A stretch of 62,156 nucleotides of DNA, from NCBI GenBank assembly GCA_036517535.1, contig DATDVS010000005.1, forward strand, positions 1-62,156. The letters are read 5' to 3'. Of this stretch, positions 4,763 through 47,079 are shown in pieces. The position numbers and the translations under genes are program-made. How positions within the stretch are numbered: position 1 is the first letter of the stretch; each line of letters begins with the position of its first letter. The stretch is from Minisyncoccota bacterium. GTDB taxonomy: Bacteria > Patescibacteriota > Minisyncoccia > Phycocordibacterales > UBA9973. A model generated the notes under the pieces. It was given only the letters and a program-made list of their open reading frames with translations. It did no database searches and was not told the DNA's origin.

Positions 4763-5245
4763 ATGAACGAACATTTTACAAATAAACCTCAAGAGCAGTC
4801 AGGTCCGCAGAGATTAGTACGTCCGAAAGGGGGATGGGGACATCTAGATAAATTCGGCAGAATTCCGTACTTAATAAATGTCAGACTTAATTTGGATGAA
4901 TTCGTTGACGCTGGTTGGGATGATTATGTTAGGAGGACAGATTTCTTAACTAAAGATTTAAGTAAAAAACATCCTGCGTCTTTCACGTTAAAGAATCTTA
5001 CTGAGAAAGAAGGGCATTATTTAGAGATAGTCATGCATTGGAATATTCCAAAAGAATTTGAGGAGGTCGTTTTATTTCATGAATTGAGAGAGGCTGAGAT
5101 GTTATACGGCGATAATGTAAAATGGGAAGAATCGCATCAATTAGCGGAAAAGGAAACTACAGAATATGCTCAAAGATATCTTAACGCAGAACAGTTCGAA
5201 AGATATAAAAAATGGATAGAAAGTCTGAAGGAAGAAGTGAAGTAA
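4763..5245 (+). CDS. hypothetical protein (orphan cargo between tRNA 3'-end repeats)
   Basis: 160-aa ORF filling the space between the two 33-nt repeats; visibly more A+T-rich than neighbours; contains FHELREAE; no family recognised. Confidence 0.5.
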   Translation: MNEHFTNKPQEQSGPQRLVRPKGGWGHLDKFGRIPYLINVRLNLDEFVDAGWDDYVRRTDFLTKDLSKKHPASFTLKNLTEKEGHYLEIVMHWNIPKEFEEVVLFHELREAEMLYGDNVKWEESHQLAEKETTEYAQRYLNAEQFERYKKWIESLKEEVK

Positions 5246-7434: not shown

Positions 7435-9521
<2,087 letters not shown>

Positions 9522-13880: not shown

Positions 13881-14081
13881 TTATCTATAACCTTTGGTTA
13901 AAAGTACGGTTAGTATGAAAACCAAAACCAAAAGGATGACATAAGGCACCTTCCACCACCAGTTCTTCTCCCCCATCACTTTCTTCAGCATGCCCCAGCC
14001 CTCCATGAGCATATAAAAAGGCAGGACAGCGATCATGTACCAAATGACGAAAAATAAAAAGCCCATGGGGGTATTATACAC
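13881..14081 (-). CDS. small 2-TM hypothetical protein
   Basis: 66-aa hydrophobic ORF; start uncertain (GTG 14081 or ATG 14066). Confidence 0.4.
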   Translation of the reverse strand: MYNTPMGFLFFVIWYMIAVLPFYMLMEGWGMLKKVMGEKNWWWKVPYVILLVLVFILTVLLTKGYR

Positions 14082-14144
14082 CTCACCCGGCCCTTCGATA
14101 AACTCAGGGCCACCCTCTCCTAGCCAGGAGAGGGGTTGGGTTGT
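14081..14144. repeat. R2 element, long nested-palindrome form, copy A
   Basis: CCTCACCCGGCCCTTCGATAAACTCAGGGCCACCCTCTCCTAGCCAGGAGAGGGGTTGGGTTGT; near-identical left half to 18108-18175. Confidence 0.8.
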
Positions 14145-14146
14145 AA

Positions 14147-14620
14147 TTATTTCTGTATCAGAATAGTCGCTACGTTCTGAGATTTATCGCAGTCCACCAG
14201 CCAGGTAGCAGGTAGAGCGGAACTCGAGAGTTTTACTATCTTGAAGCCCCAAGCTTTGATGTTGTAAGTAGAACCGACTCGCACTGTGCGATCCAGTGAT
14301 GAGCGATTATCTATCATAATCTCTGAGCCGTTCTTGAAAGTAGTATTGGTCAGGCTGGCGCGGCATTCCTGGTCGAGCTGAATACGAGCATCCGCATATT
14401 TTTTAAGCGCGTTGGCATAGCTGATAGTAGCGGCCTTGGACGCAGAATTGACACTGCCGGAGCTCGTGTCCTCCACAGAATCCGCGGGTTCGAGAGCCGT
14501 GTCCCCGGTCGTGTTGTCCCCGACCGTTATGTCCGCGGGAGTGCTTTTAGCCCACCAAATGAGTCCTGCAACGACAACTATCACCACCGCGATGCTGATC
14601 CATAAATTTTTATTTTCCAT
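14147..14620 (-). CDS. hypothetical secreted/membrane-anchored protein
   Basis: 157 aa, N-terminal TM LWISIAVVIVVVAGLIWWA. Confidence 0.5.
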   Translation of the reverse strand: MENKNLWISIAVVIVVVAGLIWWAKSTPADITVGDNTTGDTALEPADSVEDTSSGSVNSASKAATISYANALKKYADARIQLDQECRASLTNTTFKNGSEIMIDNRSSLDRTVRVGSTYNIKAWGFKIVKLSSSALPATWLVDCDKSQNVATILIQK

Positions 14621-14710: not shown

Positions 14711-14735
14711 CTTTGCGGGTGTCCAACACCCGCAG
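14711..14735. repeat. RAYT-flanking hairpin (downstream copy)
   Basis: CTTTGCGGGTGTCCAACACCCGCAG (8-bp stem, 3-nt loop); exact inverted copy at 15422-15446. Confidence 0.85.
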
Positions 14736-14740
14736 TCAAT

Positions 14741-15400
14741 TTACGGAAGCGGATCATCCTCCAAAAGAGAAGTCAGGCCCCTTTCTTCACGAATAAATGA
14801 TATAACGTCCAGACATTCTCTTTTGAAGTTTTTATTGCCTCCATAGAAATCCAGCAATTCTTTCGCCTCGGCTTTTGAAACAAGAACAAAATTATTCGCA
14901 TCATACTCTTTTTCACTTGATAAAACTAAATGTCTTTTTTCTTTCGGAATGTTGTGTACTAAATAATTTAAATGAGTATAGGGACGAATTTTCAAAAAAT
15001 AAGCGTCATCATCTATTAAATGAGATTTGAACCTTCCTTGAAAAAGTGCTCCGCTTCTTTGATGTATTAAATTAAAATAATTTGTATATCCGCCCAGTAA
15101 ACGCTTGAAAAACTCTGAAATACCACCATCTACCTCCTGTTTCAAAATAAAATGAAAATGGTTGGGATTGAAACAATAACAAACAATAGAAACCAGCCTC
15201 GTCGGGTGTCCAACACCCGACGATTCTTTTAACTCAGTAAGGCGCTCTTTTATACTGCCAATAGGTTTAACCACATTGAACTCTTTGACACTCAACACAA
15301 ACCTGTCCAGGTCAGCTTTATTCATAAATATATCTCTTTTATCCACGCCTCTATTGTAAATATGATAATAAAGCCCTGTTATCAACGGATCTTTTCTCAT
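14741..15400 (-). mobile_element. IS200/IS605-type Y1 (HUH) transposase, RAYT-like (start moved to MRKDPLITG...)
   Basis: YYHIYNRGVDKRDIF N-terminus, HUH motif NHFHFIL, C-terminal Tyr region YTHLNYLVHN; flanked by inverted hairpins. Confidence 0.7.
15201..15221. repeat. third copy of the RAYT hairpin core, inside the RAYT ORF (in frame, encodes GVGHPT)
   Basis: GTCGGGTGTCCAACACCCGAC. Confidence 0.75.
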
Positions 15401-15421
15401 AAAAGTATTGTACCACAACCC

Positions 15422-15446
15422 CTGCGGGTGTTGGACACCCGCAAAG
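15422..15446. repeat. RAYT-flanking hairpin (upstream copy, inverted)
   Basis: CTGCGGGTGTTGGACACCCGCAAAG, the reverse complement of 14711-14735. Confidence 0.85.
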
Positions 15447-15450
15447 CTGA

Positions 15451-15490
15451 AAAACAAAAAGCCCCAAAATAGAATTGAGAGGGCTTTTTG
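15451..15490 (-). terminator. rho-independent terminator after the 294-aa PG-binding protein gene
   Basis: minus strand AAAAAGCCC-loop-GGGCTTTTTGTTTT. Confidence 0.65.
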
Positions 15491-18102: not shown

Positions 18103-18107
18103 ATTGA

Positions 18108-18175
18108 CCTCACCCGGCCCTTCGATAAACTCAGGGCCACCCTCTCCTTAATAAGGAGAGGGGCTGGGGGTGAGG
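18108..18175. repeat. R2 element, long nested-palindrome form, copy B
   Basis: CCTCACCCGGCCCTTCGATAAACTCAGGGCCACCCTCTCCTTAATAAGGAGAGGGGCTGGGGGTGAGG. Confidence 0.85.
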
Positions 18176-18178
18176 TGA

Positions 18179-18541
18179 TTATTTGCCCTCTTTAGCCAGA
18201 GTTTCAGCGATCTTGCTGGTCGGCAGAAGAGCTCCGTAGAAGACAACATTCTTCGCGGTTAAATGAAGGCTCTTGGGTGCCCAGAGAGCCTGGTCGAGCG
18301 GCTGGAGCGAGAAATTGTTCTTCGTAGCATCCGCCGGATCCTTGGTTACCTGTAAAATATACCCATTTTTAAGGGTAAAACCACCAAAAGTGGACAACTG
18401 GCCCACATAGACCTCCCCTGTCGTCAGGTAGACTACCGAGTACCCATTTCCTGCGACTCTATATTTCCAAAATAGACCTGCACCGACTACAACCAGAACC
18501 AAAACCACTGCAATAATTAAATTCTTCTTATTTTGCAACAT
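18179..18541 (-). CDS. hypothetical membrane-anchored protein
   Basis: 120 aa with N-terminal TM. Confidence 0.5.
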   Translation of the reverse strand: MLQNKKNLIIAVVLVLVVVGAGLFWKYRVAGNGYSVVYLTTGEVYVGQLSTFGGFTLKNGYILQVTKDPADATKNNFSLQPLDQALWAPKSLHLTAKNVVFYGALLPTSKIAETLAKEGK

Positions 18542-26902: not shown

Positions 26903-27976
26903 ATGCAAAGGAATAAAGAGAAAAAAGAAAAGAAAGAGGACAAGACAGTAGGAACAGAGTTATTAGAAAATACTTTGAAGGGCATCCAGGCCAAGTTCGG
27001 CGAAGGCTCCATCATGAAGTTCGGCGACTCGCCGAAAGTGGACATCAACGTCATCCCCACCGGTTCGATCGGCCTGGACATGGCGCTCGGCGTCGGCGGC
27101 ATCCCGCGCGGCCGCATCATTGAAATTTTTGGCCCGGAATCCTCCGGCAAAACCACTCTCTCGCTCCACATCGTGGCGGAAGCGCAGAAGAAAGGCGGCA
27201 TCTGCGCCTACATCGATGCGGAGCACGCGATGGATCCGGAATATACCAAGAAGCTCGGGGTAAACATCAACGAACTTTTGATTTCTCAGCCGGACAACGG
27301 CGAGCAGGCGCTTGAAATCGTGGAGAGCTTGGTGCGCACTGGGAAAATTGATGTGATCGTCGTCGACTCCGTGGCGGCGCTTACCCCGAAGGATGAAATC
27401 GAGGGCGACATGGGCGCCTACCATGTGGGCAAGCAAGCTCGCCTGATGAGCCAAGCTCTCCGCAAGTTGACAGCCATCGTGGCTCGCTCCAAAACCGTGG
27501 TAATTTTCATAAACCAGATCCGCATGCAGATAGGCGTGATGTTCGGCAACCCGGAAACTACCCCAGGCGGCAAGGCTTTGAAATTCTACACCTCGGTCCG
27601 CCTCGACATCCGGAAAATTGCGCAGATTAAAAAGGGCGAAGAGGTAGTGGGTTCCCGCACCCGAGTAAAAATAGTGAAAAATAAAGTGGCGGCGCCCTTC
27701 AAGCAGACGGAATTCGACATTATTTACAACGAAGGGATTTCTAAAGAGGGCGAGATCATGGCGCTGGGGGAAAAATACAAGATCGTAGAGAAAGTCGGCA
27801 ATTCGTATTTTTATGTACCCCCACCTGACCTCCCCCTACATAAGGGTGAGGAGAAAAGTGAAAAAATAAAGCTTGGCGTAGGCTACGATGCGACTCGCAA
27901 ATTCCTGAAAGAAGATAAAAAAGTCGCCGTGCAAATACTAAAAGAGATAAAGAAGAAATTTGCGGAGCCAGAATAA
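26903..27976 (+). CDS. recA: recombinase RecA (carries an in-frame R2 insertion near the C-terminus)
   Basis: 357 aa; Walker [39 protein letters not shown]. Confidence 0.97.
27817..27853. repeat. R2 element, short form, in frame inside recA
   Basis: ACCCCCACCTGACCTCCCCCTACATAAGGGTGAGGAG; encodes [13 protein letters not shown]. Confidence 0.8.
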
Positions 27977-28607: not shown

Positions 28608-28808
28608 TTACTTAGCTACGAAAGGCAGGAGTCCAAAAAAGCGGGCATGCTTGATGGCGGTAGAGAGAGCGCGCTGATTCTTGGCGGTCACACCGCTTCG
28701 CCTGTGGCTTACGATCTTGCCATTGGGATTTAGAAATCTCTTCAGGATCTCCACATCCTTGTAGTCTATGTATTTTATATTATTGGCTGAAAAATAATCT
28801 TGTTTCAT
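28608..28808 (-). CDS. rpsR: 30S ribosomal protein S18
   Basis: 66 aa; IDYKDVEILKRFLNPNGKIVSHRRSGVTAKNQRALSTAIKHARFFGLLPF. Confidence 0.9.
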   Translation of the reverse strand: MKQDYFSANNIKYIDYKDVEILKRFLNPNGKIVSHRRSGVTAKNQRALSTAIKHARFFGLLPFVAK

Positions 28809-28908
28809 GGTCTTTGACTAGTTGTAAAGTTTATAATGTTGAAAGTTTTTAAAGTTGAATTTATAACGCATTTACTTTATGACTTTATGAACTTGATGAC
28901 TTTCTACT
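28806..28908. repeat. 103-nt perfect direct repeat, copy 1 (ssb-rpsR spacer; built from R3 units in both orientations)
   Basis: Identical to 29378-29480, from the ATG of the downstream gene to the stop region of the upstream gene. Confidence 0.95.
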
Positions 28909-29380
28909 AAAACGGTATATCTTCCGGGTTAATATCTTCCTCTGGGTACTCGATGGAGTCTATCTCGTCAGGTCCTGCGGATGCCGGGCCTTTGGATGCT
29001 CCGCCCGCGCTTGATGTGCCCCCGCTCGGTGCCGCTCCTCCGCTGTTAGCCCCTCTGGGCCCGAACTGCGTTCGGTCCGCAACTATCTCAGTGCGGTATT
29101 TCTTCTCTCCACTCGTCTTGTCATCCCAGCTCCTGGTCTGCATTCGGCCCTCCACCAGCATAGAACTGCCCTTCTTCATGTATTGAGCAACGGTTTCCGC
29201 CTGCCGGCCGAAGACCACCACGTTGTGATAATCGGCTGACTCCTGCTTTACGCCGTTCTTGTCTTTCCAGACGCGATTGGTCGCCAGGGAGAATGAACAA
29301 ACTTTGATGCCGGAGGGCAACGAACGAAGCTCCGGATCGCGAGTAAGGTTGCCTATTACGATTGCTTTATTCAGGTACAT
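28907..29380 (-). CDS. ssb: single-stranded DNA-binding protein
   Basis: 157 aa; OB-fold N-terminus NKAIVIGNLTRDPELR, Gly/Ala/Ser linker, acidic tail EDINPEDIPF. Confidence 0.9.
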   Translation of the reverse strand: MYLNKAIVIGNLTRDPELRSLPSGIKVCSFSLATNRVWKDKNGVKQESADYHNVVVFGRQAETVAQYMKKGSSMLVEGRMQTRSWDDKTSGEKKYRTEIVADRTQFGPRGANSGGAAPSGGTSSAGGASKGPASAGPDEIDSIEYPEEDINPEDIPF

Positions 29381-29480
29381 GGTCTTTGACTAGTTGTAAA
29401 GTTTATAATGTTGAAAGTTTTTAAAGTTGAATTTATAACGCATTTACTTTATGACTTTATGAACTTGATGACTTTCTACT
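29378..29480. repeat. 103-nt perfect direct repeat, copy 2 (rpsF-ssb spacer)
   Basis: Identical to 28806-28908. Confidence 0.95.
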
Positions 29481-30035: not shown

Positions 30036-30860
30036 CTATATTTTAAATACTCTTTTGGCGTTTTGGATAATCGCTTCAGCAACCTCGGCTTCCGGCAAGC
30101 CCTTGATTTCCGCGATTTTTTTGGCCACTTCCTTCACGTATACCGGGTCATTGCGCTTGCCGCGGTGGGGCACGGGGGTCACATACGGAGCATCGGTCTC
30201 CGACATGATCATATCAAGCGGGGTATTTTTTATTACTTCGTCATAGTCATGGGTAAAAGTAATCACGCCGGTAAATGAAAGAGTAAAACCTAAATCAAGA
30301 AATTCTTTTGCTTCTCCCCATGTTCCCGCAAAGAAGTGTACATTGCCCCTGACTTTCGCGTGTTCTTTGAGTATTTCTAATGCATCGGCATATGCACTTC
30401 GGATATGCAGCATTAGGGGCTTATTAAATTCATTAGCAAGCTCTATCTGCGCTATGAAATTCTTTTTTTGGTTTTCAATGTAATCCGTATCAGCACGGTA
30501 ATAATCCAGCCCGCACTCCCCTATACCCACCACCTTCGGGTGCTTCAGTAGTTCGCGGTAAGCATCTTTATCTATTTTTTCTCCGCGCGAAGTAAATTCT
30601 TTTCCCTCCTCGCCCAGTTCTTTCTTATCATGAAATGATGCTCCGGTGTGGATGGGGTGCAGGCCCACGATAGCATACACGCCCTCCGGATATTTCTCCG
30701 CCATCTCCACCGCTTTGCGCGAAGTGTCTATCTGGGTGCCCACATTTATGATCCAAGTGTCATTCTCTAGCGCCCGCTTGAGTACTAGATCGCGATCCGC
30801 ATCAAAAGCGGAAAAATTCACATGGGAATGGATGTCTATGTATTTAGGTTCTTTTTTCAT
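30036..30860 (-). CDS. tatD: TatD-family metal-dependent hydrolase/DNase
   Basis: 274 aa; IDIHSHVNF, GIGECGLDY, LMLHIRSA, HFFAG, ETDAPY. Confidence 0.9.
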   Translation of the reverse strand: MKKEPKYIDIHSHVNFSAFDADRDLVLKRALENDTWIINVGTQIDTSRKAVEMAEKYPEGVYAIVGLHPIHTGASFHDKKELGEEGKEFTSRGEKIDKDAYRELLKHPKVVGIGECGLDYYRADTDYIENQKKNFIAQIELANEFNKPLMLHIRSAYADALEILKEHAKVRGNVHFFAGTWGEAKEFLDLGFTLSFTGVITFTHDYDEVIKNTPLDMIMSETDAPYVTPVPHRGKRNDPVYVKEVAKKIAEIKGLPEAEVAEAIIQNAKRVFKI

Positions 30861-30867
30861 AAATTAT

Positions 30868-30934
30868 ACCCCCACCTGATTTTCCCCACATTAAATTATA
30901 CCCCCTCCTAGCCTCCCCCTACATTAGGGGGAGG
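30868..30934 (+). repeat. R2 element (tandem degenerate 1.5 copies ending in perfect hairpin CCTCCCCCT-ACATT-AGGGGGAGG)
   Basis: ACCCCCACCTGATTTTCCCCACATTAAATTATACCCCCTCCTAGCCTCCCCCTACATTAGGGGGAGG; overlaps the last codons (PPPNVGGG*) of the DUF559 ORF. Confidence 0.8.
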
Positions 30935-31294
30935 AATAGTGAGTTCGTGTTTAATCTTTTTTAAAACTTTATCTATGTTAGCACTTATTTCCCTATTCCA
31001 AAAACGTAAAACTTTAATATCATGTATAAGTAAATAATTATCTCTTTCTTTGTCATAATCCTTATTTAATAAATGATGAGAACCATCTAATTCAATACCA
31101 AGTCTTCTTTCAGAACAATAAAAATCTAAAATGTAAGGTCCGACAGAATACTGACGAGTAAATTTATACCCCAAACTTTTTCTTCTTAGTTTCACCCAAA
31201 GCAACTCTTCGTCAACGGTTTCTGCCTTGCGCAAATCTTTACGTCGCGGTTTAAGTTTAGGGTCGTTATATAGAAACATATCTATAATCCCCAA
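30908..31294 (-). CDS. DUF559 (Vsr-like PD-(D/E)XK endonuclease) domain protein
   Basis: 128 aa; LRKAETVDEELLWVKLRRKSLGYKFTRQYSVGPYILDFYCSERRLGIELDGSHH. Confidence 0.85.
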   Translation of the reverse strand: MGIIDMFLYNDPKLKPRRKDLRKAETVDEELLWVKLRRKSLGYKFTRQYSVGPYILDFYCSERRLGIELDGSHHLLNKDYDKERDNYLLIHDIKVLRFWNREISANIDKVLKKIKHELTIPPPNVGGG

Positions 31295-31929
31295 ATTTTA
31301 GCTACTCGCTTCTCCCACATATCTTTTCGCTCGTCTAAAATTGTGGTCAGTTCCTCTGGGTCTTTAATCCTTTGAGACCTTTTTGCTACACTTTGGTCAT
31401 CTCGTTTAAATAAAAGAGCCAGCAAATCGGTTTTAATTGTCTTTCTTTTTTCTACGGATAATCCTTTCAGCCAAACAATATAGGCTTTTCGATATTGTTC
31501 TACTTTGCCTCCAATGGCTAGTCGAGTAAGCACACCAAGAATATGAACAATTTCAAATAATTTCTTTTCTCTATCAAAACCATCGAGGTAATTTAATTCT
31601 TGAGTTTTAATTATATTTACATTGGTTGGAACTAGGTGTATCGGTACTCCAGTTTTCAGAGTAATTTTTTTAGCAGTATCTAACATCTTAACTACGTATT
31701 TACCTTCACCCTCTGGTTCCCAACAATCATGCATGGCAATTACATCAAGGTCAGAATTTAAAGTACTATAACCCGCAACGGTGGAACCGTGTGGAACTAA
31801 ACCCACAAAATGAAGGTCATTTGATAACTCATCTTCTAATTTCCTCAAAACAGCTAGTTCTCTTTTATTTGGCTTTCCTTCGAAGTTACGAGGAATATAA
31901 AGTTTTTTGGTAAATGCGTCTGGGTTCAT
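31282..31929 (-). CDS. putative nucleotidyltransferase-fold (Pol-beta superfamily) protein
   Basis: 215 aa; HGSTVAGYSTLNSDLDVIAM matches the GS..(n)..DxD NTase signature; overlaps the DUF559 gene by 13 nt. Confidence 0.5.
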   Translation of the reverse strand: MNPDAFTKKLYIPRNFEGKPNKRELAVLRKLEDELSNDLHFVGLVPHGSTVAGYSTLNSDLDVIAMHDCWEPEGEGKYVVKMLDTAKKITLKTGVPIHLVPTNVNIIKTQELNYLDGFDREKKLFEIVHILGVLTRLAIGGKVEQYRKAYIVWLKGLSVEKRKTIKTDLLALLFKRDDQSVAKRSQRIKDPEELTTILDERKDMWEKRVAKIWGL

Positions 31930-31935
31930 TTTCTT

Positions 31936-31974
31936 CTCCCTCGCCCTATGTAGGGGGAGGGCTGGGGTAGGGGT
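31936..31974 (-). repeat. R2 element, short form, inverted relative to 30868-30934
   Basis: plus strand CTCCCTCGCCCTATGTAGGGGGAGGGCTGGGGTAGGGGT. Confidence 0.8.
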
Positions 31975-31978
31975 AAAA

Positions 31979-33418
31979 TCAATCTTTGCGTAAGAATAAT
32001 GGGGTCTCCGGCTTCTTGTTAGTCTTAATTAATTCTTTTAGCTTCACGTTGGTTTCTGGTAAAAGTGGGTTAAGCATGCGAGCGATGACATACAGCTCCA
32101 CTACCATTTCCGAAATTAATTTTTTTCCTTTTTCCGGGTCAGTTTTTACAACTTTGAACGGTTCGGTGGCCTGGATCTTCTTGTCGAGCTCCCCTATTTT
32201 ATGCCACACATAATCCGCTGCTTTTTTAATATCGAATGTTTCATAAATCTTGAAATATTCTTCGAAATCGCTTTGTTCTGGAATTTCCGGGCATTTTTCC
32301 AAATATTTCTCCGATAATGTAAGTATCCGCGAGGCTAAATTTCCCAGCCCGTTCGCCAAGTTCGCATTGTAGGCCTCCTTAAAGCGCTCCATAGTAAAAG
32401 GACTGTCTTCAAAAGAGGATATCTCGCGCAGGAGGAAATATCGAAGAGCATCCGTGCCGTATTCTTTTACGATATCCACGGGGTTAACCACATTGCCGAG
32501 CGACTTGGACATTTTCATTCCACCCTCGCCAGCGATGAAGCCATGATAAATGATTCTGTCTGTGTTTGGCAGCCCCGCTGACATCAGCATTCCTTGCCAC
32601 ATGGCTGATTGGAATTTAACCATGTCTTTACCCGCCATCTGCACTTTTTCCGCCTCTTGCCAGAATTTTTTGAAATTCTCTATCTTATTCGGCCACCCTA
32701 AAGTCGAAATATAATTCACAAAAGCATCAAACCATACATACATCACTTGGGTGTCGTCATTCGGCACGGGCACTCCCCAGGAAAAACGTTTTTTGTCGCG
32801 GGAAATGGAGAAATCTTCCATTGCATTCGCAACGTATTCAATTGCCTCATCTCTCCTCCACTCTGGAATAACTGATTCATTTTTTGAAAGATATTTTAAG
32901 AGCTCATTTTTGTAATTACTTAATTTGAAAAAATAATTTTCTTCCTCTATTTCTTCAAGCTTTAAGTTTATATGAATAGCGCAGTGCCCATCGACAATAT
33001 CTTTGTCCATTAGAAATCTCTCACAGCCCACACAGTAAAGTCCTTTATATTTTTTCTTGTATATATCGCCTTTCGCATCGCAGATTCTCCAGAATTCCTG
33101 AGCAGCTTTTATATGCTCTGGATCAGTGGTTCTGATAAAATTATCATTTGATAGATTTAAAAGTTTTTTTAGCTCCATAAACTTTTCCGCATAAAAATCC
33201 ACGTATTTCTGAACTTCCTTACCTTCCCTCAAACTTCCCTCCCAGATTTTTTGTCCGTGTTCGTCCGTTCCTGTACTGAAAAAAACTTCCGAGCCAGCGA
33301 GCCTTTTGTACCGTGCGATCGCATCCGCTTGCACCAGCTCCAGCGCGAAGCCTATATGTGGATCGGCGTTCACGTAAGGGATAGTGGTCGTTATATAAAA
33401 ACTTTTCTTTTTCTCCAT
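31979..33418 (-). CDS. metG: methionine--tRNA ligase (short form, no C-terminal domain)
   Basis: 479 aa; PYVNADPHIGF (HIGH position), Zn knuckle CVGCERF..., KMSKSLGN. Confidence 0.95.
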   Translation of the reverse strand: MEKKKSFYITTTIPYVNADPHIGFALELVQADAIARYKRLAGSEVFFSTGTDEHGQKIWEGSLREGKEVQKYVDFYAEKFMELKKLLNLSNDNFIRTTDPEHIKAAQEFWRICDAKGDIYKKKYKGLYCVGCERFLMDKDIVDGHCAIHINLKLEEIEEENYFFKLSNYKNELLKYLSKNESVIPEWRRDEAIEYVANAMEDFSISRDKKRFSWGVPVPNDDTQVMYVWFDAFVNYISTLGWPNKIENFKKFWQEAEKVQMAGKDMVKFQSAMWQGMLMSAGLPNTDRIIYHGFIAGEGGMKMSKSLGNVVNPVDIVKEYGTDALRYFLLREISSFEDSPFTMERFKEAYNANLANGLGNLASRILTLSEKYLEKCPEIPEQSDFEEYFKIYETFDIKKAADYVWHKIGELDKKIQATEPFKVVKTDPEKGKKLISEMVVELYVIARMLNPLLPETNVKLKELIKTNKKPETPLFLRKD

Positions 33419-35820: not shown

Positions 35821-35823
35821 CTA

Positions 35824-35879
35824 CCTCACCCGGCCTTCAGCCACCCTCTCCTTGACAAGGAGAGGGGCTGGGGGTGAGG
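35824..35879. repeat. R2 element, long form with internal deletion, copy C
   Basis: CCTCACCCGGCCTTCAGCCACCCTCTCCTTGACAAGGAGAGGGGCTGGGGGTGAGG. Confidence 0.85.
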
Positions 35880-35880
35880 T

Positions 35881-37092
35881 CTAGATTCTAGACTTAATAT
35901 AATTTTCCAAATCTTTTACTTTTATGCGCTCTTGATTGCCGCTGTCGCGGTCGCGGACGGTCACCGTGTCGTCGGTCAGGGTATCGAAGTCAATGACGAT
36001 ACAGAAAGGCGTGCCGATCTCGTCCTGACGGCGGTAGCGCTTGCCGATGTTGCCGTTGTCGTCCCAGGCCACCCGGCCGAACAGAGCCTTGAGCGGCGCA
36101 AAAACTTTTACATTCGCATACTCCACGAGCTCCGGCTTGTTCTTCAAAAGTGGCGACACGGCGCAAATCACCGGCGCAATATTTGGCTTGAATTTTAAAT
36201 AGGATCTCGCCTCTCCGTCCTTCTCGTCTTCCGCATAGGCAGACACAAGAAGCGCCAAGATCGCCCGATCAACCCCCATCGATGGCTCAATCACATGCGG
36301 CACCATCTTCTCACTCTTTTCCTCATCGACATAATCAAGGTTGTGTTTGGTTAAATCAAAACCTCCCCGATACGCGAGGCCAAAAAGTTCTTTTCTGCCA
36401 AACGGATATTCAAATTCGAAATCAACTGTCCTCTTTGAGTAGTGGGCGCGGTCAGTATCTGGTACTTCAAGCTCGTGCACTTTACCCATATCGAGCCCTA
36501 CCTCCTCCATCCACTCAAGCATCTCCCCCCGCCAATATTCGAAATATTTCTCCCAGTCTTCCGGCCTTATAAAATATTCTATCTCCATCTGCTCGAACTC
36601 CCTCTGACGGAATATAAAATCCCGCGGAGCGATCTCGTTCCGGAAAGCCTTGCCGATCTGCGCGATGCCGAATGGCAGCTTCGGGTGAAAAGCATCCACC
36701 GTGTTTTTAAAATTTACAAATATCCCCTGAGCTGTTTCGGGGCGGAGATACGACAAGGTGGCTTCCTCGCCAGCGCCCACTTGAGTTTTGAACATGACAT
36801 TAAACTGCTTACCATTCGGCAGCGGGTCGGAAAACCCGGCCACATGTCCGGATGCTTCCCAAGCCTTCGGATTCATAATTATGGCCGCATCCATACCGTA
36901 CACATCGCGCCTAGAGTCTACGAATTTTTTCCACCAATTTTGCTTTAGATTATTTTTTAATGCGACTCCGAAATGCCCCCAGTCGAAAGTTCCCGCCAGT
37001 CCGCCGTAAATTTCCGAGCCCTGGAAAACAAATCCCCGCCTTTTGCAAAGTGAAACTATTTTCTCCATTAAATTATTTTCTTCTTTTTCCAC
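35881..37092 (-). CDS. glyQS: glycine--tRNA ligase (alpha2-type, reduced)
   Basis: 403 aa; RRGFVFQGSEIYGG, YLRPETAQGIF, FRNEIAPR, GVDR; start GTG 37092 or ATG 37068. Confidence 0.9.
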   Translation of the reverse strand: MEKEENNLMEKIVSLCKRRGFVFQGSEIYGGLAGTFDWGHFGVALKNNLKQNWWKKFVDSRRDVYGMDAAIIMNPKAWEASGHVAGFSDPLPNGKQFNVMFKTQVGAGEEATLSYLRPETAQGIFVNFKNTVDAFHPKLPFGIAQIGKAFRNEIAPRDFIFRQREFEQMEIEYFIRPEDWEKYFEYWRGEMLEWMEEVGLDMGKVHELEVPDTDRAHYSKRTVDFEFEYPFGRKELFGLAYRGGFDLTKHNLDYVDEEKSEKMVPHVIEPSMGVDRAILALLVSAYAEDEKDGEARSYLKFKPNIAPVICAVSPLLKNKPELVEYANVKVFAPLKALFGRVAWDDNGNIGKRYRRQDEIGTPFCIVIDFDTLTDDTVTVRDRDSGNQERIKVKDLENYIKSRI

Positions 37093-40846: not shown

Positions 40847-43800
40847 CTATTTTATCACAAAACCCCGCAGCTCTGCGATTATAGGTGCTACCGTCTCGTC
40901 AGTGATATCTTCGGGCTTTATTGTTGAATTTTTAAAGATTTCCTTTTCTATACCCAGACCACAAGCGATAAGTTTTACTCGATTTTCGTCCACAAAAACA
41001 TCCTCTCGGCCTTTATATCTGACTTCCGCTTCATCCATCCTAGCTTGATACGACATAACTCCACGAGGAGCTACACGCCCATCTGCATAATGCGCAATTT
41101 TCACATTTATGTCGGAATTTTTTAACTGCGTACACAAGAGACTAAACCGATTGCTTTGCGCGATATGAATTACCCTATCAGGCACCCCTATTTCCCGCAT
41201 TAACATTTCGTTAGCGGCGTGCTCATCAGAACCATATTTAGAAACAAATTCATTTTTAACTCCCATCCAATAATCTAATCCTTCCGGCTCATAAAAATCA
41301 GGTAAACTTTCGCTTTTGAACTTAATTATATTCCCTATATCATGCAGTAAACACGCTGAAATAATATTTCCCTTTTCAACTTTAATATTCATTGAATCGC
41401 ATATCAAAGACACTACGGCGGCAACGCGCAGCATGTGCATCTGCAGGGTCGGCATTATTTTATATTTCTTATAAATCTTCTCAATGCTTAAAGGCATTTT
41501 GTCGCCCGGGTTAAGGCCGAGCTTCTTGCGCATATCCTGAAGCTCCCGCATAAACTCGCGGTACTCCCCCTCCGCCTTGAGCGCCGGCGTCATGTTTGTA
41601 TCGAGACTGAACGTTCCAGTTGCGCCATAATTTTTAACATTCAACTCCTCTTTTAGAATCTCCACATATTCTGGCGCAAAGGCGGGCCCGGTCGCGCTCA
41701 AAATCGGTTGCCGGACCGGAATATTTTTTTCTTGTCTTTCTTTCAATAATGTCGAAACGCTATCGCGCACCTTTGCCATATCTCCAATTACAGTTGATTT
41801 TCTGCCGAAAAATCCGAAAAATCCTTTCTTCTTGAACGCCGGCCAGAGTGCCAAATGCACCGACTTTTCATCTTTCTCATTTTTTAACTTAAGCCATATG
41901 TCTTCCGCCGTAAACGGCGCGAAGGGAGCGATAAGTTTGGATAAAGTTTTCAAAACAAAGTATAAAGTTTGCTTCGCTTCACTGTCCCCTTCCTTTATTC
42001 GCTCGCGACTGCGACGCAAGTACCAGGTAGAAAGGTCATTGATGAAGTCTTTCATCGCCCGCACTGGCTCGAGTAGTTTGTAATTGTCTAAATTTTTTGT
42101 ATTGAGTTCTATAACTTCGTCGAGCCGAGCCAAGATCCATTGATCTAGGATGTTATTAGAATTAGGTTCTAGGTTATAGCTTCTAGCTTCTAGTGAACGA
42201 TCTCGGTAAAGCTCGTAAAAGGCTAAAATGTTGTAGAGCAGTCCAAAAACCTGGCGATGTAATTCGAGAACTGTTTTTTCATCGAAATTTTTCGACTCTC
42301 CCGGCTGATTGACCGAATACATCCACAGGCGCAGGGTGTCTACGCCGTATTTATCCATCATCTCCCACGGGTCCACTACGTTGCCGAGCGACTTGGACAT
42401 TTTTTTGCCTTTCGCGTCCATCAAATGCCCCAGGCAAATTACATTTTTGTATGCCTTGCCCCGCCCCATCAGCACCCCCACCGCATGAAGGGTGTAGAAC
42501 CAGCCGCGGGTCTGGTCTATGGCCTCGGAAATAAAGTCCGCCGGGTAGCCCGGCCCCTCCACCCACTCTCTATTTTCAAACGGGTAGTGGTCCTGCGCGA
42601 AGGGCATGGCGCCGGAATCAAACCACACGTCCATAACCTCTTTTGTGCGGATTAAATCTCCGCCGCAGGCTTGCCCTGAGATTGTCGAATGGGCGCACAC
42701 GAGCTCCACCTCATCAATATAAGGGCGGTGTAAGTCGAGTTCGTAACTGGCATCATGGGGAAAGGAAGTAAAAGGAATTTCTTGAACTTCCGCAGTATCG
42801 AACATAACACGCTCGTTAAAATTATCGCTCGTATGCCAAAGAGCAAGATTTTCCATAGTCCAAATTGGACCACCGTGAGAAACTATGAGAATATTTTTAT
42901 TTTGATACTTATTCTCCAATTCAAACAGAAATTCGCCCGTCCTTTTTCGTACTTCTTTAAAATCTGCTTCGTTAAACTCATGCAATCGATCCTCTATATG
43001 AAACATTTCATCTTTCAACCCAAGTTCCGCCTTAACTATTTGGGAAGTTTCCCGAGTACGCAGGAATGGAGAAGTGAAAATAAGATCAATTTTTTTATTC
43101 TTCAATTTTTTTCCTGATTCCGATGCCTCATTTTTACCTTTTTCAGTCAGGTGGTTATTTGGGTCGCCCTTAGGGTCTAGAATGTGCTTCGCGTTATCGA
43201 TTGCCTCGCCATGACGCATAATGAAATATTTGTTTCCGGATTTTTTGGCTTTGTTCTTTAATTCATCTAGGCTGCCTATGACATGCCTCTTCTTGCATTT
43301 AGTGCAATCCCATACCGGCAGTGGCGTGCCCCAGTAGCGCTCGCGGGATATCGCCCAATCCTTGATCTCGCGCAACCATTCGCCGAAGCGTCCGCCCTGG
43401 ATGTGTTCCGGCTCCCAGTTGATGGTTTTGTTCTCGACGATCATTCTGTCTTTAACTTTCGGAGCCGACATTTTGATGTACCATGAATCGCGGGCATAAT
43501 ATATGAGCGCAGTGTGGCATCTCCAGCAATGCGGATATGGGTGTTCGTATTTTTCTTTTTTAAAAAGGAGTCCGCGTAGAGCGAGATCTTTAATCACATC
43601 CACCGCCACCGCCTCGTCCCGCACAAACCTGCCTTCAAATATTCCGGTGCCGGGTAAAAATTTCCCGTCGAGCCCGACTAGGTGATGTTTCGGCAATCCC
43701 ACCTTGGTTCCGAGCTCAAAGTCATCCTGTCCGTACATTACCGCGGTATGAACGATGCCAGTACCGTCCTCCGTGTTTACGAAGTCCGCCGCATATACCT

Positions 43801-44755
43801 TGTACGCCTTGGTAAGGTCGGACCTTGGGGAATTCTTACGGTCCGACCTTAAGGACTCTTGGAGAAAAGGATACAGCGGCTCGTATTCCATACCTACCAT
43901 TTCGGATCCGGCATGCTCGGCTATGACCTCGTACGGTTCCGTTAGGATGGCGAGCCTGTCTTTAGCTAGAACTAAAATTTCATTGCCTACTTTCACCTCC
44001 ATATACATAACTTTTTCTCCCACAGCGAGAGCCACATTACCGGGTAATGTCCATGGCGTAGTCGTCCAAGCAAGAATGTAAGTATTCTCCTGCCCTTTAA
44101 CTTTAAACTTAGCTGTTACAGACAGATCTTTTACATCTTCATACCCCTGCGCAAGCTCGTGCGAGGAGAGCGCGGTGCCGCAACGCGGGCACCAAGGTAC
44201 AACTTTGTAATCCTTGTATAAAAGTTTTTGTTCGTCTACCTTTTTTACGACATTCCAAAGAGATTCGATATATGAATTGTAATATGTAACATACGCATTC
44301 TCCTGGTCCGCCCAATAACCCATTCGCTTGGTAAAACTTTTCCATGATTCAACATATTTCCAGACACTGTCTTTGCATTCTTGATTGAATTTCGCGATTC
44401 CATATTCTTCGATCTCTTTTTTTGATTTAATTCCTAATTCTTTCTCAACCTGTAATTCCACAGGCAAACCGTGGGTGTCCCATCCGCCCTTGCGGCGCAC
44501 ATGGTAGCCGCGCATAGTTTTGTAGCGTGGAATGGCATCTTTAAAGGAAAACGGCACCATGGTGTGCAGTACGGGCTTGGAATTAGCTGTCACTGGGCCA
44601 TCGTAGAAGACAAACTCACCTTTGGACGACTTCTTCTCCAGTGATTTATTAAAAATTTTATTCTCGCGCCAAAACTCGAGAATTTTTTCTTCTCTTAAGG
44701 CTGATTCTGATTTACTTGCCCCGAGCTTAATCGAGGGGTTTGTTTCTTCGCTCAT
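40847..44755 (-). CDS. ileS: isoleucine--tRNA ligase with inserted histidine-phosphatase domain and C-terminal HD domain (start moved to MSEETNPS...)
   Basis: 1302 aa; IleRS core (WDTHGLP, editing-domain TTTPWTLPGN, GTGIVHTA, WISRERYWGTP, KMSKSLGN); RHG...SHG histidine-phosphatase segment at 42746-43237; LLHDIGN HD segment at 40850-41467. Confidence 0.9.
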   Translation of the reverse strand: MSEETNPSIKLGASKSESALREEKILEFWRENKIFNKSLEKKSSKGEFVFYDGPVTANSKPVLHTMVPFSFKDAIPRYKTMRGYHVRRKGGWDTHGLPVELQVEKELGIKSKKEIEEYGIAKFNQECKDSVWKYVESWKSFTKRMGYWADQENAYVTYYNSYIESLWNVVKKVDEQKLLYKDYKVVPWCPRCGTALSSHELAQGYEDVKDLSVTAKFKVKGQENTYILAWTTTPWTLPGNVALAVGEKVMYMEVKVGNEILVLAKDRLAILTEPYEVIAEHAGSEMVGMEYEPLYPFLQESLRSDRKNSPRSDLTKAYKVYAADFVNTEDGTGIVHTAVMYGQDDFELGTKVGLPKHHLVGLDGKFLPGTGIFEGRFVRDEAVAVDVIKDLALRGLLFKKEKYEHPYPHCWRCHTALIYYARDSWYIKMSAPKVKDRMIVENKTINWEPEHIQGGRFGEWLREIKDWAISRERYWGTPLPVWDCTKCKKRHVIGSLDELKNKAKKSGNKYFIMRHGEAIDNAKHILDPKGDPNNHLTEKGKNEASESGKKLKNKKIDLIFTSPFLRTRETSQIVKAELGLKDEMFHIEDRLHEFNEADFKEVRKRTGEFLFELENKYQNKNILIVSHGGPIWTMENLALWHTSDNFNERVMFDTAEVQEIPFTSFPHDASYELDLHRPYIDEVELVCAHSTISGQACGGDLIRTKEVMDVWFDSGAMPFAQDHYPFENREWVEGPGYPADFISEAIDQTRGWFYTLHAVGVLMGRGKAYKNVICLGHLMDAKGKKMSKSLGNVVDPWEMMDKYGVDTLRLWMYSVNQPGESKNFDEKTVLELHRQVFGLLYNILAFYELYRDRSLEARSYNLEPNSNNILDQWILARLDEVIELNTKNLDNYKLLEPVRAMKDFINDLSTWYLRRSRERIKEGDSEAKQTLYFVLKTLSKLIAPFAPFTAEDIWLKLKNEKDEKSVHLALWPAFKKKGFFGFFGRKSTVIGDMAKVRDSVSTLLKERQEKNIPVRQPILSATGPAFAPEYVEILKEELNVKNYGATGTFSLDTNMTPALKAEGEYREFMRELQDMRKKLGLNPGDKMPLSIEKIYKKYKIMPTLQMHMLRVAAVVSLICDSMNIKVEKGNIISACLLHDIGNIIKFKSESLPDFYEPEGLDYWMGVKNEFVSKYGSDEHAANEMLMREIGVPDRVIHIAQSNRFSLLCTQLKNSDINVKIAHYADGRVAPRGVMSYQARMDEAEVRYKGREDVFVDENRVKLIACGLGIEKEIFKNSTIKPEDITDETVAPIIAELRGFVIK
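40849..40859 (-). promoter_or_regulatory. extended -10 TGTGATAAAAT, 6 nt before ATG 40842 (inside the ileS 3' end)
   Basis: minus strand TGTGATAAAATagaggaATG. Confidence 0.5.
43814..43850. repeat. R1 palindromic element, in frame in ileS
   Basis: AAGGTCGGACCTT GGGGAATTCTT ACGGTCCGACCTT; coding strand [14 protein letters not shown]. Confidence 0.9.
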
Positions 44756-44990
44756 AAAATAAAAACTCGTCCACGAACTACAACCGAAGTTATAATTCAA
44801 GGACGAGTCTCAAGCCCGTTTACGGTGAGCTTGTCGAACCGTGGTACCACCTTGTTTGCTTCTCATTTACTGGGTTCTACTTTTCGCAAGGACGGTCCTT
44901 GTGAATTTCTCCCCAAAGCTCGGGCCGTTCAAGGCTCTGAATAGCCTCTCAGGCTCACGAAGAGGTGATGTCCCCTTCAACGCTTGTGCA
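44756..44990 (-). promoter_or_regulatory. T-box-like riboswitch leader of ileS
   Basis: minus strand contains AAGGTGGTACCACGG (T-box core GGUGGUACC) at 44840-44851, a 5' hairpin GAAGGGG-ACAUCA-CCUCUUC (44959-44978) with AUC+A in the loop, and a terminator. Confidence 0.5.
44760..44810 (-). terminator. intrinsic terminator at the 3' end of the ileS leader
   Basis: minus strand ACTCGTCC-28 nt-GGACGAGTTTTTATTTT, ending 5 nt before the ileS ATG. Confidence 0.6.
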
Positions 44991-45327: not shown

Positions 45328-47079
45328 TTACATCCTCTCCGGAGCTGCGATGCCGAGGAGGTGCAGGCCATTGCGGAGGACGATGGAGAATGCTTCGGTG
45401 AGTGCTACGCGGTAGGCGGAAAGCGGGTCATTTTTGTCGATAATTTTGGTGTTGCCGTAGTAGGTATTGAATGAACGGGAGAGTTCGATTAGAAAGTTCG
45501 CGATGTAGTGCGGAGCATATTCCTCCCCTGCTCTGTGCGCCGCTTCAGGGAACCGGCATAACAGCCTTTCAAGCTCGGAGACATTCTCCGGCAAATTGCC
45601 AAAGCCCGGCGCCACTCCCTCGGCCTCCGCTTTATTTAAAATTGACCTCGCCCGCGCGTAGGAATACTGCAAGTAGGGGCCCGAATCCCCTTCGAAGGAA
45701 ATAGATTTTTCAAAATCATAGATGATGTCCCCGCCGATCGAGGACTTTAAAATGGAGTACTTCAAGGCCGCCACGCCCACGCCGGAAGCCACTTCTTCTC
45801 TTTCTTGATCACTGAAATCCCGATCCGATATTTTCTCCAGTATCGCCGCCCGGGCATCCCGGATGAGCGACTCGCCGGTCACTACATTGCCTTTTCTCGA
45901 GCTCATTTTCCCGGCGGCAAAACGCATCATGCCATGGGTAATGTGCTTCATTTTTTTCTCATGCTCACTTCCATTGGGCTCGATCATTGAAAGAGCCTTG
46001 GCGACCACCCGCATGTAGTCCGCTTGTTCGTTGGCAGTTATGACCAAAGACAGATCCAGATCCGCCCTGGTTTCAAATTTCGCTTCGGTCAAGCCAAGCT
46101 CTTTCGTTTCATATGTCGGTAGCCCTCCGGAAGTGATGAAAACTCTAGTATGGAGCCTTGGATCATACTTCTCCGCTTTAAATACAATCGCGCCGTCGCT
46201 CGCTTCAAAAACTTTACCAACATTATCCCGCACCAACTTCTCCCCCAAGGCTGCCACTTCGCTTTCAAGAAAATACAGATCAAATTTAGTGCCCAGTATT
46301 TTATACAAGCCCTCAAAGGCCTCCATTGTAGTTTTGAAACCCCAATCATATATTTCATTTATTTTCTCGTTGCCAGCCCCGTTTATTCCCTCGTATATTT
46401 TTTTATTTATTTCATCTATTTCTTTTTTTATGTTGTCATTCTCGTACGCTTCCGCGCCCTTGACATAGCACTCACCGATCCAGGATGCCGCCACGGCAAC
46501 ATCTCCGCCTAAATCGATAAATTCCTTTCTTTTTTCATATTCTTCGCTCTTTAGAATGCCCCAGATAGCTTTGGCAATGTGGAGCCCCGCGTCGCCTTGG
46601 TAGTTGGCGCGCAGAACTTTGGCTCCGCCGTTCTCCACTATCCGGGAAATAGACTCCCCGATCGCGTTGGTCATCAGGTGGCCGATGTGAAATGGCTTGA
46701 AAGGGTTCGGATCGGTGTATTCGATCATTATCTTCTTGCTTTTAAAGAGGTGGTTGCGCCCGAAATTCTTGTTGTCGAGAATCTTCTTTACACTCTCCTG
46801 GAAAAAGTATTTGTTCAGATAAAAATTGACGAATCCGGAAACCGCTTCAATTTTCTCAAGGTCCGACCTTGGGGAATTTTTAAGGTTGGACCTTAATTGC
46901 CCTGCAATCTTCTCCGCGAGCTCTACCGGGCTAGTTTTAAGCTTCTTCGCCAGAATAAAAGCGACGTTAGTGGAGTAATCCCCCATCTGTAGATCCGCCG
47001 GGCGTTCGAGAACAACTTCCTTTGCCTCAATTTTAATATCCAGCGCATTCTTAATTAAATTTTTTATTTGCTCCTGCAT
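45328..47079 (-). CDS. argS: arginine--tRNA ligase
   Basis: 583 aa; FHIGHLM (HIGH), GKMSSRKGN, DALR anticodon-binding C-terminus. Confidence 0.95.
   Translation of the reverse strand: MQEQIKNLIKNALDIKIEAKEVVLERPADLQMGDYSTNVAFILAKKLKTSPVELAEKIAGQLRSNLKNSPRSDLEKIEAVSGFVNFYLNKYFFQESVKKILDNKNFGRNHLFKSKKIMIEYTDPNPFKPFHIGHLMTNAIGESISRIVENGGAKVLRANYQGDAGLHIAKAIWGILKSEEYEKRKEFIDLGGDVAVAASWIGECYVKGAEAYENDNIKKEIDEINKKIYEGINGAGNEKINEIYDWGFKTTMEAFEGLYKILGTKFDLYFLESEVAALGEKLVRDNVGKVFEASDGAIVFKAEKYDPRLHTRVFITSGGLPTYETKELGLTEAKFETRADLDLSLVITANEQADYMRVVAKALSMIEPNGSEHEKKMKHITHGMMRFAAGKMSSRKGNVVTGESLIRDARAAILEKISDRDFSDQEREEVASGVGVAALKYSILKSSIGGDIIYDFEKSISFEGDSGPYLQYSYARARSILNKAEAEGVAPGFGNLPENVSELERLLCRFPEAAHRAGEEYAPHYIANFLIELSRSFNTYYGNTKIIDKNDPLSAYRVALTEAFSIVLRNGLHLLGIAAPERM
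46858..46894. repeat. R1 palindromic element, in frame in argS
   Basis: AAGGTCCGACCTT GGGGAATTTTT AAGGTTGGACCTT; coding strand [14 protein letters not shown]. Confidence 0.9.

Follow-up and report, generated by a model that had tools for sequence, protein, structure and literature searches.

A short GC-rich palindromic element probably inserted in frame in recA of a Parcubacteria genome, and its likeness to the terminal repeats of a DUF559 gene cassette

An in-frame palindrome in the C-terminal domain of RecA

The window analyzed here is a 62,156-nucleotide (nt) stretch of contig DATDVS010000005.1 (Minisyncoccota bacterium, assembly GCA_036517535.1), and its recA gene carries a GC-rich palindromic repeat, R2, within the reading frame. 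We propose, with a probability of roughly 0.8, that the 24 nt by which this gene exceeds its closest uninserted orthologs represent one copy, translated in frame, of a short repeat element built as a GC-rich nested palindrome. The gene, the repeat copy and the net gain lie as follows.

26903 to 27976, + strand: recA coding sequence, 357 amino acids (aa), host gene of the R2 insert (from the list of open reading frames [ORFs]; matches RecA entries in PDB)
27816 to 27853, + strand: R2 copy in recA, consisting of the left outer arm TACCCCCACC (27816 to 27825), the spacer TGA and the inner hairpin CCTCCCCCT-ACATA-AGGGTGAGG (27829 to 27851)
27820 to 27843, + strand: net gain of 24 nt (8 codons) over the closest uninserted recA orthologs (codon-aware alignment of 20 recA genes; protein alignments)

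The ORF product matches RecA in PDB over residues 18 to 353, C-terminal domain included (best E = 1e-120), and the Pfam domains precomputed for the protein are RecA_N and RecA_C. Its nearest named relatives come from Nomurabacteria and "Parcubacteria group" metagenome-assembled genomes, which points to a host in the Parcubacteria/Paceibacteria of the candidate phyla radiation (CPR). The R2 copy reads ACCCCCACCTGACCTCCCCCTACATAAGGGTGAGGAG at 27817 to 27853, and the codons at about 27815 to 27853, GTA CCC CCA CCT GAC CTC CCC CTA CAT AAG GGT GAG GAG, run through it in frame as 13 residues. The sequence-only reading of this DNA had reported a GC-rich palindrome in frame in recA with a one-mismatch hairpin, and both the sequence and the 357-aa ORF agree with it: the stem pairs CCTCCCCCT with AGGGTGAGG around the loop ACATA, with one mismatch. 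The window copy is a short form without the right outer arm, and its hairpin folds at −5.8 kcal/mol as DNA (z = −1.5) and −11.8 kcal/mol as RNA (z = −1.4). As the flanks GTACC and GGTGAG resemble the ends of the element, the boundaries of the insert can be placed only to within a few nucleotides. Within the window, the hairpin pattern CCTCCCCCT-N5-AGGGNGAGG matches only at 27829 to 27851 and 30912 to 30934 (0.00 expected from shuffled sequence), and the only two sites of the 12-mer ACCCCCACCTGA are 27817 and 30868 (0.10 expected). An intein, intron or homing-endonuclease insertion was considered and ruled out, as the segment is 24 nt long, in frame and encodes no domain. An Rfam search of the elements matched no known RNA family.

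The RecA loop as an insertion hot spot

Orthologs for comparison were the best 120 RecA clusters, all about 83 to 93% identical to the query. The state common among them is a loop of 10 residues, ...GNSYFYTPSGEKAEKVKLGVGYD..., within a protein of 346 aa. The loop has at most 11 residues in 57 of the 120 clusters (e.g., YFYTPSGEKAEKVKLGVGYD) and at least 13 in 62, the long loops coming from several different insert families. The insert of the window type, [PL]P-x-LP[LF]-x-K-G-E-E, stands at the same point in 20 clusters, of which 7 additionally carry ...EKGGGK, and it is present in at least eight independent assemblies. Orthologs about 90% identical in protein that have no palindrome are exactly 8 residues (24 nt) shorter at the insert site. 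Since aligned relatives without the palindrome are also without the 8 residues, an extra loop that persists where the palindrome is missing was not what the comparison found, and the in-frame insertion proposed earlier stands. The excess had been put at about 13 residues. This holds against E. coli RecA (AWYSY-KGE-KIGQG), but only 8 of these residues come from the element, and the remainder belongs to a loop extension common to the whole Nomurabacteria-like clade, which amounts to 8 residues relative to other Parcubacteria; more distant Parcubacteria RecA proteins have the canonical form SGTSYSYG-EEKLGRGYD. Placed on RecA by alignment to solved structures, in which query residue Y304 aligns with E. 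coli Y293, the insert site follows Y293 directly, in the K294-G295-E296 turn of a β-hairpin in the C-terminal domain (E. coli numbering). At this site uninserted recA orthologs already read xTA CCN GNN GGT GAG, a sequence that overlaps the inserted unit at its two ends.

Several palindromic families, unrelated to one another, share the RecA loop as a hot spot. Besides the window-type insert the loop holds, in other clusters, inserts reading PARNASSIAGAGG, AVVSTKAGV/ALAKAG, APASAKGSSETK, AKSGKARSPDASGEASR and PDPTLRPPLDKGRVGEGSKG, as well as a 40-residue double insert; nested or double inserts occur in the related genome L014 and in protein cluster P0048. Two closely related genomes, L204 and L205, have recA genes of 98.6% DNA identity (15 mismatches over 1,041 nt) that differ by a clean 39-nt palindrome, CCTGCCCGCAATGCTTCCAGCATAGCTGGTGCAGGCGGG, present only in the L204 gene (4552 to 4590). 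This palindrome, R3, encodes PARNASSIAGAGG, and a second copy lies in the FtsK ORF of L205 (56 to 94), the genome whose recA has none. The R3 family also sits at different positions of the RecA loop in clusters P0249 and P0245. On this sequence comparison, turnover at the RecA loop appears to be recent. A separate observation concerns L028, a more distant member of the Parcubacteria, in which the hairpin peptide GKTPGVKDAPTPGVEE is found in the RecA loop and again in an ORF of 508 aa that is unrelated (4915 to 4935 and 14393 to 14413).

RecA is one of several such hot spots, which amends the earlier account of recA as the site of the element. In-frame hairpins also occur in MetG, FtsK and TatD of relatives. 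The second hot spot is the MetG loop YISTLGW-[loop]-FEKFW, whose base state is 6 residues and which contains varied hairpin inserts of 13 to 20 residues in 10 of 17 genomes (L001, L002, L010 to L014 and L201 to L203); the window MetG reads YISTLGW-PNKIEN-FKKFW there (about 32640 to 32660). MetG inserts of different families all end in ...ENL, which suggests that they may replace one another at an occupied site. FtsK of relatives has two or three in-frame C-rich hairpins (L011 at 7793 and 8672; L014 at 7835, 7903 and 8768; L201 at 1607 and 1673), one example being ...SSPDKGRLGGV... directly before RLPYIVI, and TatD of L050 (13535) has one, PLPTLPLIRGGQGWG.

Conservation of the insert as DNA

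Eight insert-bearing recA genes were available as DNA (the window, L001, L011, L014, L015 and L201 to L203), and the ORF stays open through the element in the window and in eight sequenced orthologs. Outside the element, 4-fold degenerate sites of the eight genes are saturated, with pairwise identities of 0.27 to 0.44 (mean, 0.38 over 110 columns). Inside the element, the same genes have an identity of 0.86 at its five 4-fold sites (resampling P < 1e-5). All proline codons of the element are CCC, and the rest of recA in these genes uses mostly CCG and CCA. The codon in the hairpin loop is free to vary (CAT, CTC, CCT, GGC, AAT or ACT, giving H, L, P, G, N or T). Arms that are constant at synonymous sites around a freely varying loop codon are not what selection on a protein loop predicts, and we therefore regard the segment as a DNA element, either inserted repeatedly or held constant as nucleotides. 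The loop ACATA, shared by the window recA copy and the repeats of the gene cassette described below, was considered as a sign of concerted evolution and dropped; the histidine codon CAT of other recA copies and a synonymous change from CTT to CTA suffice to produce it.

The full element is about 50 nt long and has the form TACCCC(C/T)(A/T)CC(C) - N3-4 - CCTCCCCCT(T) - loop - (A)AGGGGGAGG - N3-5 - GGAGGGGGTA. The unit measures 36 nt in the window and 50 to 55 nt when complete, with a net gain of 8 to 15 residues (24 to 45 nt). A complete nested palindrome, TACCCCTACCC-GG-CCTCCCCCTT-AAT-AAGGGGGAGG-AGAAA-GGAGGGGGTA, is found in recA of L203 and L014 and in the seven clusters with ...EKGGGK; the L203 copy has folding energies of −15.2 kcal/mol (DNA) and −32.9 kcal/mol (RNA). 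The C-rich and G-rich arms are free of stop codons in all frames.

Terminal repeats of a DUF559 cassette

As the sequence-only reading had noticed, the same element recurs at 30868 to 30934 and, inverted, at 31936 to 31974. These copies are present, but they are not plainly intergenic: they are the terminal inverted repeats (about 36 nt) of a cassette that carries a DUF559 gene between metG (31979 to 33418, − strand) and tatD (30036 to 30860, − strand). In the direction of the genes, the cassette runs from outer arm TACCCCTACCCC and a hairpin through the genes to a second hairpin and outer arm GGAGGGGGTA.

30867 to 30934, + strand: terminal repeat at the 3' end of the DUF559 gene, with inner hairpin (30912 to 30934), outer arm TACCCCCTCC (30899 to 30908) and duplicated outer arm TACCCCCACCTGA (30867 to 30879)
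30908 to 31279, − strand: gene for a DUF559 protein, a predicted Vsr-like PD-(D/E)XK nuclease; the start at MFLYND is taken from homologs, and the longest ORF reaches 31294
31282 to 31929, − strand: extra ORF in the cassette, 215 aa, with weak similarity to nucleotidyltransferases (Pfam matches below curated cut-offs)
31938 to 31975, + strand: other terminal repeat, inverted relative to the recA copy, with hairpin CCCTCGCCC-TATGTA-GGGGGAGGG (31938 to 31961) and outer arm GGGGTAGGGGTA (31964 to 31975)

The two repeats fold as DNA at −10.9 kcal/mol (z = −3.3; 30867 to 30934) and −9.7 kcal/mol (z = −3.1; 31938 to 31975). The inverted, more diverged copy was also recovered independently as repeat I12 (31934 to 31965; 32 nt, 78% complementary). 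The DUF559 product matches Pfam PF04480 (E = 3.7e-31; 107.7 bits against a cut-off of 20.6), and the nearest solved structure is PDB 3HRL, an "endonuclease-like protein" (E = 7e-15). Its last codons (IPPPNVGGG) are translated hairpin, the inner hairpin at 30912 to 30934 overlapping the end of the gene. About 70 of the best 120 DUF559 homologs end likewise in xP[PH]P[ND]VGGGx[VE]GV, a translated repeat in which GGGGGTA is immediately followed by the stop codon. The 215-aa ORF, between the left repeat and the DUF559 start, is found in this genome only, being absent from the cassettes of L001, L012, L014, L204 and L205, and may be cargo.

The link from cassette to recA is provided by the right repeat of the L001 cassette, which reverse-complemented reads TACCCCCACCTGACCTCCCCCTACATTAGGGCGAGG and is identical to the window recA insert at 34 of 36 positions. 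The recA insert is therefore one terminal unit, a left outer arm plus hairpin. Comparison of the metG-tatD junction, which is conserved across Parcubacteria, adds the states of the cassette site. It is empty (6 to 24 nt) in L003, L006 to L010 and L013; it holds a solo nested palindrome of about 50 nt in L005, L011 and L202; it has both hairpins only 16 nt apart, a deletion remnant, in L015; and it contains a full cassette in the window, L001, L012, L014, L204 and L205. Neighboring genes are about as diverged as the DUF559 gene and its repeats, as in vertical inheritance.

Other DUF559 paralogs are bracketed by their own cognate hairpins, in the recA-efp interval of L001 and at the glyS-peptidase M16 junction of L014, L015 and L201. 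Over 1.36 Mb of related loci with 115 C-rich hairpins, such a hairpin lies at most 120 nt downstream of all 11 DUF559 genes, and upstream as well in 8 of the 11; only 2% of positions are equally close to one.

A sister subfamily and the wider distribution of the motif

Six R2-family copies lie in the window. Three of them belong to the subfamily ACCTCACCC/CCCCTCTCC, which is used by the L001 DUF559 paralog and is represented in the window by solo copies only.

14080 to 14143, + strand: intergenic solo copy of the sister subfamily, a nested palindrome (ACCTCACCC ... CCCTCTCCT hairpin), repeat family D20
18107 to 18176, + strand: solo copy of the sister subfamily (nested palindrome), immediately following the stop codon of the gene at 18179 to 18541 (− strand); DNA fold −24.8 kcal/mol, z = −6.4
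35823 to 35880, + strand: solo copy of the sister subfamily (nested palindrome) at the glyS-peptidase M16 junction, which in L014, L015 and L201 holds a DUF559 gene with its own hairpins

The repeats given earlier as starting at 14081, 18108 and 35824 had been tied to the recA copy through their tail. The architecture bears this out: they have in common the outer arm, the C-rich hairpin and the tail GCTGGGG(G)T(A/G)(G/A)GGT, and repeat family D11 joins recA-type and nested copies at 66% identity over 41 nt. The inner stem (CCCTCTCCT) is a different one, however, and on sequence we class these copies as a sister subfamily rather than the same element. A role of the solo copies as intrinsic terminators seems unlikely by eye, as the stems at 18107 and 35823 are not followed by a T-run.

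Searching for the hairpin, as the earlier reading had advised, thus located the element elsewhere in the window and in relatives, both between and inside genes. In metagenomes, the pattern TACCCCYWCC-N3-5-CCTCCCCCT was found on at least 120 contigs (L081 to L200) of 35 to 72% GC, with 134 motif copies among the matches listed. The complementary arm follows in 105 of these 134 even though the pattern left it unspecified, and this shows the motif plus hairpin to be real and widespread. Of the matches listed, 18 have the nested form complete, almost only on low-GC, CPR-like contigs. Occurrence of the same outer-arm-plus-hairpin motif on contigs of 35 to 72% GC hints at related elements well beyond the CPR. 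As further observations on these contigs, the motif TACCCCC(A/T)CCC-N3-4-CCCTCCCCCT-loop-AGGGGGAGGG reaches far beyond those that are CPR-like, a frequent variant reads ttcTACCCCCWCCCTARCCCTCCCCCTGCAAGGGGGAGGGGA, and the G-rich strand has four G-runs, a putative G-quadruplex motif.

How the element could have entered recA

We propose that a DNA-level process spreads or maintains the element, either by transposition-like insertion or by templated repair or gene conversion between copies, and that the similarity between element ends and target (CC...GGTGAG) would help it to spread. Only copies that land in phase within permissive loops would survive selection, other insertions being purged. Because the arms are free of stop codons in every frame, a protein that receives an in-phase copy in a tolerant surface loop would stay functional, and the insert probably has little or no effect on RecA function. 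Hot spots could arise where the target resembles the ends of the element, or where an existing hairpin scar attracts further copies. By analogy with RAYT transposases and their REP palindromes (below), the flanked DUF559 nuclease would be the likeliest protein partner to act on the hairpins, and we infer from this analogy that DUF559 may mobilize them. More broadly, we speculate about a partnership of nuclease and repeat that has not been described before and joins DUF559 genes with the nested hairpins cognate to them; the nuclease would recognize or cut its own hairpin or cruciform ends and so spread or homogenize palindromes that remodel loops of core proteins (RecA, MetG, FtsK and TatD). 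This wider proposal is tentative, and we would put it at somewhat worse than even odds.

Several points weigh against an inserted, mobile and translated element. The case for its movement is entirely comparative, and that for DUF559 is one of association. No clear target-site duplication was seen between filled and empty sites; TA stands at both ends (TACCCC...GGGGTA) and may be part of the palindrome itself. Neighbor-joining trees of RecA protein, recA DNA and eight concatenated neighboring proteins are star-like (backbone support of 17 to 69% for the eight proteins), with insert-bearing sequences scattered in every tree. Because of these star-like trees and the saturated synonymous sites of recA, one old insertion followed by many losses is inseparable from repeated insertions. 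Translation of the segment as part of RecA is assumed from the intact frame. The window copy itself may be an inert relic, because its fold is weak (z = −1.5) and one outer arm is missing. A surface position for it is suggested by the alignment to E. coli RecA; an AlphaFold2 model built on a shallow alignment of 60 close homologs had a pLDDT (predicted local distance difference test) of 45.6 and was not used. Among the metagenome matches listed, DUF559 was detectable within 300 nt of only 5 of the 134 motif copies (tblastn with CPR DUF559 seeds), and an all-against-all BLAST of the ORFs adjoining the copies revealed no recurrent protein family. Among well-supported pairs in the trees, the sisters L202 and L011 (bootstrap 100) share the insert, L002 and L012 (bootstrap 99) differ at both the recA loop and the metG-tatD junction, and L204 and L205 (bootstrap 100) differ by the R3 insert.

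A serious alternative hypothesis, which we nevertheless consider unlikely, is that recA received the patch through templated repair or ectopic gene conversion, with no insertion step encoded by the element. A break in the recA loop, or a fork stalled there, would have been repaired from a hairpin of the DUF559 cassette, about 3 to 4 kb away, primed by microhomology (CCN...GGTGAG), and the hot spot would reflect similarity of the target together with hairpin scars that draw in further copies. The overlap of the uninserted sequence with both unit ends fits this scenario, as do the lack of a visible target-site duplication, the partial element in the window (one outer arm plus hairpin), the nested or double inserts of L014 and P0048, and the ...ENL scar that MetG inserts have in common across families, a hint that inserts at an occupied site were replaced. 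Templated repair leaves unexplained, however, why the same nested palindrome stands at many unrelated sites and across genomes, and why repeats constantly bracket DUF559 genes; moreover, the clean 39-nt indel between recA alleles that are 98.6% identical looks like a discrete element.

It is also conceivable, though in our estimate quite improbable, that the segment is kept because it is useful, either as a Pro/Gly-rich loop with a function in RecA or as a DNA or RNA site (for binding or cleavage by DUF559, or as a regulatory hairpin), so that selection rather than selfish spread would account for it. Such usefulness could explain why the arms are constant at synonymous sites around a loop codon that varies among H, L, P, G, N and T, why the sisters L202 and L011 both carry the insert, and why the DUF559 gene and its repeats have diverged like neighboring genes, as if inherited vertically. 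It sits poorly with the roughly half of close relatives that have no insert at all, with the unrelated inserts at the same place in other lineages, with the mismatch and weak fold of the window copy, and with the lack of a matching Rfam family there. We can hardly credit, finally, that the extra residues are an old feature of the RecA loop whose likeness to the repeat is chance low-complexity convergence or an assembly artifact: the sequences are of low complexity and the clade does have its 8-residue loop extension, but a 12-mer and a 23-nt hairpin are shared where 0.00 to 0.10 matches are expected by chance, the identity with the cassette repeat of another genome is 34 of 36, the codon usage of the insert is foreign to recA, and at least 8 independent assemblies and 20 protein clusters carry it.

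Relation to known palindromic elements

An in-frame copy of a nested-palindrome element, as we favor for recA, invites comparison with three groups of bacterial repeats. The Rickettsia palindromic elements (RPEs; Ogata et al. 2000, Science 290:347, via PMC10969869) are, as summarized in that review, about 100 to 150 bp long and encode 30 to 50 residues. As RPEs are portrayed there, R2 resembles them in that palindromes lie between genes and, unusually often, in frame in conserved genes with the ORF kept, that a peptide is added without destroying the protein, that several families occur per genome, and that the genomes are small and reduced. In contrast, R2 is a GC-rich nested hairpin of about 36 to 55 nt with a net gain of 24 to 45 nt, which is short of the RPE size given in that summary, and its host belongs to the Parcubacteria (CPR) rather than to Rickettsia; R2 is thus set apart by size and host, and not by a comparison of consensus sequences. 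R2 differs further in its recurrent hot-spot loops and in the partner gene, DUF559, that it flanks. To our knowledge, RPEs have no encoded partner.

The layout is closer to that of repetitive extragenic palindromic (REP) sequences and REPINs with their RAYT transposases (PMC3116915, PMC3337134, PMC3733652). These too are short (20 to 40 nt), imperfect, GC-rich palindromes in many copies, with a single small gene bracketed by inverted repeats, what seems to be mostly vertical inheritance, and paralogs that have different cognate repeats. However, the gene bracketed by R2 is DUF559/PF04480 and not an HUH tyrosine transposase of the IS200/IS605 type; among the roughly 60 window ORFs, Pfam recognized no transposase or RAYT family, and no Y1 transposase. 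The GTAG/CGTC tag (PMC3733652) is missing at the foot of the R2 stem, where CPR copies start with (G/A/T)TACCCC; a CTAC start is found only in some metagenome variants, about 11 nt from the stem. Nor are R2 copies confined to extragenic DNA. R2 works like RPEs with a RAYT/REPIN-like layout and belongs to neither family.

MITEs, or miniature inverted-repeat transposable elements, with in-frame insertions are also known from bacteria (Coxiella QMITEs, PMC5896051; ERIC, BOX and Correia elements, reviewed in PMC10969869). Like them, R2 is small, multi-copy and apparently nonautonomous, with terminal inverted repeats and occasional in-frame fusions, and its solo forms resemble internal-deletion derivatives of the gene-carrying unit, with L015 as an intermediate. 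Unlike them, the R2 unit with the same ends carries DUF559 and no recognized transposase, shows no clear target-site duplication, and is much shorter than typical MITEs. Outside bacteria, the GC clusters of yeast mitochondria are short, GC-rich, hairpin-forming and mobile in an AT-richer genome, and an optional one lies in frame in var1. They differ in being organellar, in having no sequence relation to R2, and in having no associated DUF559. We found no description of in-frame palindromes or MITEs in the CPR, or of a link between DUF559 and repeats, in a literature search of incomplete coverage.

Rickettsia is the best-known case of "selfish" palindromes lying in frame in core genes, and a much shorter, GC-rich version in the CPR would make the phenomenon a broader route of protein-loop evolution in reduced genomes. 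Several families have struck the same RecA and MetG loops repeatedly. Such inserts inflate the apparent divergence of markers such as recA and give called proteins proline/glycine-rich "tails." The bracketing of DUF559 genes by repeats offers a testable functional hypothesis for a large family so far without one, and a partnership between DUF559 and hairpins, if true, would be of high interest, with essential proteins remodeled at hot-spot loops.

Other repeats in the window

A second repeat, R1 (AAGGTCCGACCTT-N11-AAGGTCGGACCTT), is unrelated to R2 and lies in frame in LigA (twice), IleRS, ArgRS and RecJ, so that the suggestion of two unrelated families with the same in-frame habit was borne out. 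Its copies, at 8185 to 8221, 8977 to 9021, 43814 to 43858, 46856 to 46894 and 53633 to 53671, each encode approximately the same 12 residues. A further hairpin family, (C)TGCGGGTGT-CCA-ACACCCGCA(G), occurs at 14711 to 14735, 15199 to 15223 and 15422 to 15446, and a perfect 25-nt inverted pair of this family brackets the ORF at 14741 to 15457. A perfect 103-nt direct repeat (28806 to 28908 and 29378 to 29480) makes up both intergenic spacers of rpsF-ssb-rpsR, and its AT-rich motif of the ACTTTATrACTTT type recurs upstream of other genes, the motif copies lying at 37090, 47082, 53156 and 58461. The IleRS-like ORF at 40847 to 44800 (− strand; 1,317 aa) has, in addition to its R1 insert, a histidine-phosphatase domain (His_Phos_1, aa 526 to 610) within the synthetase core.

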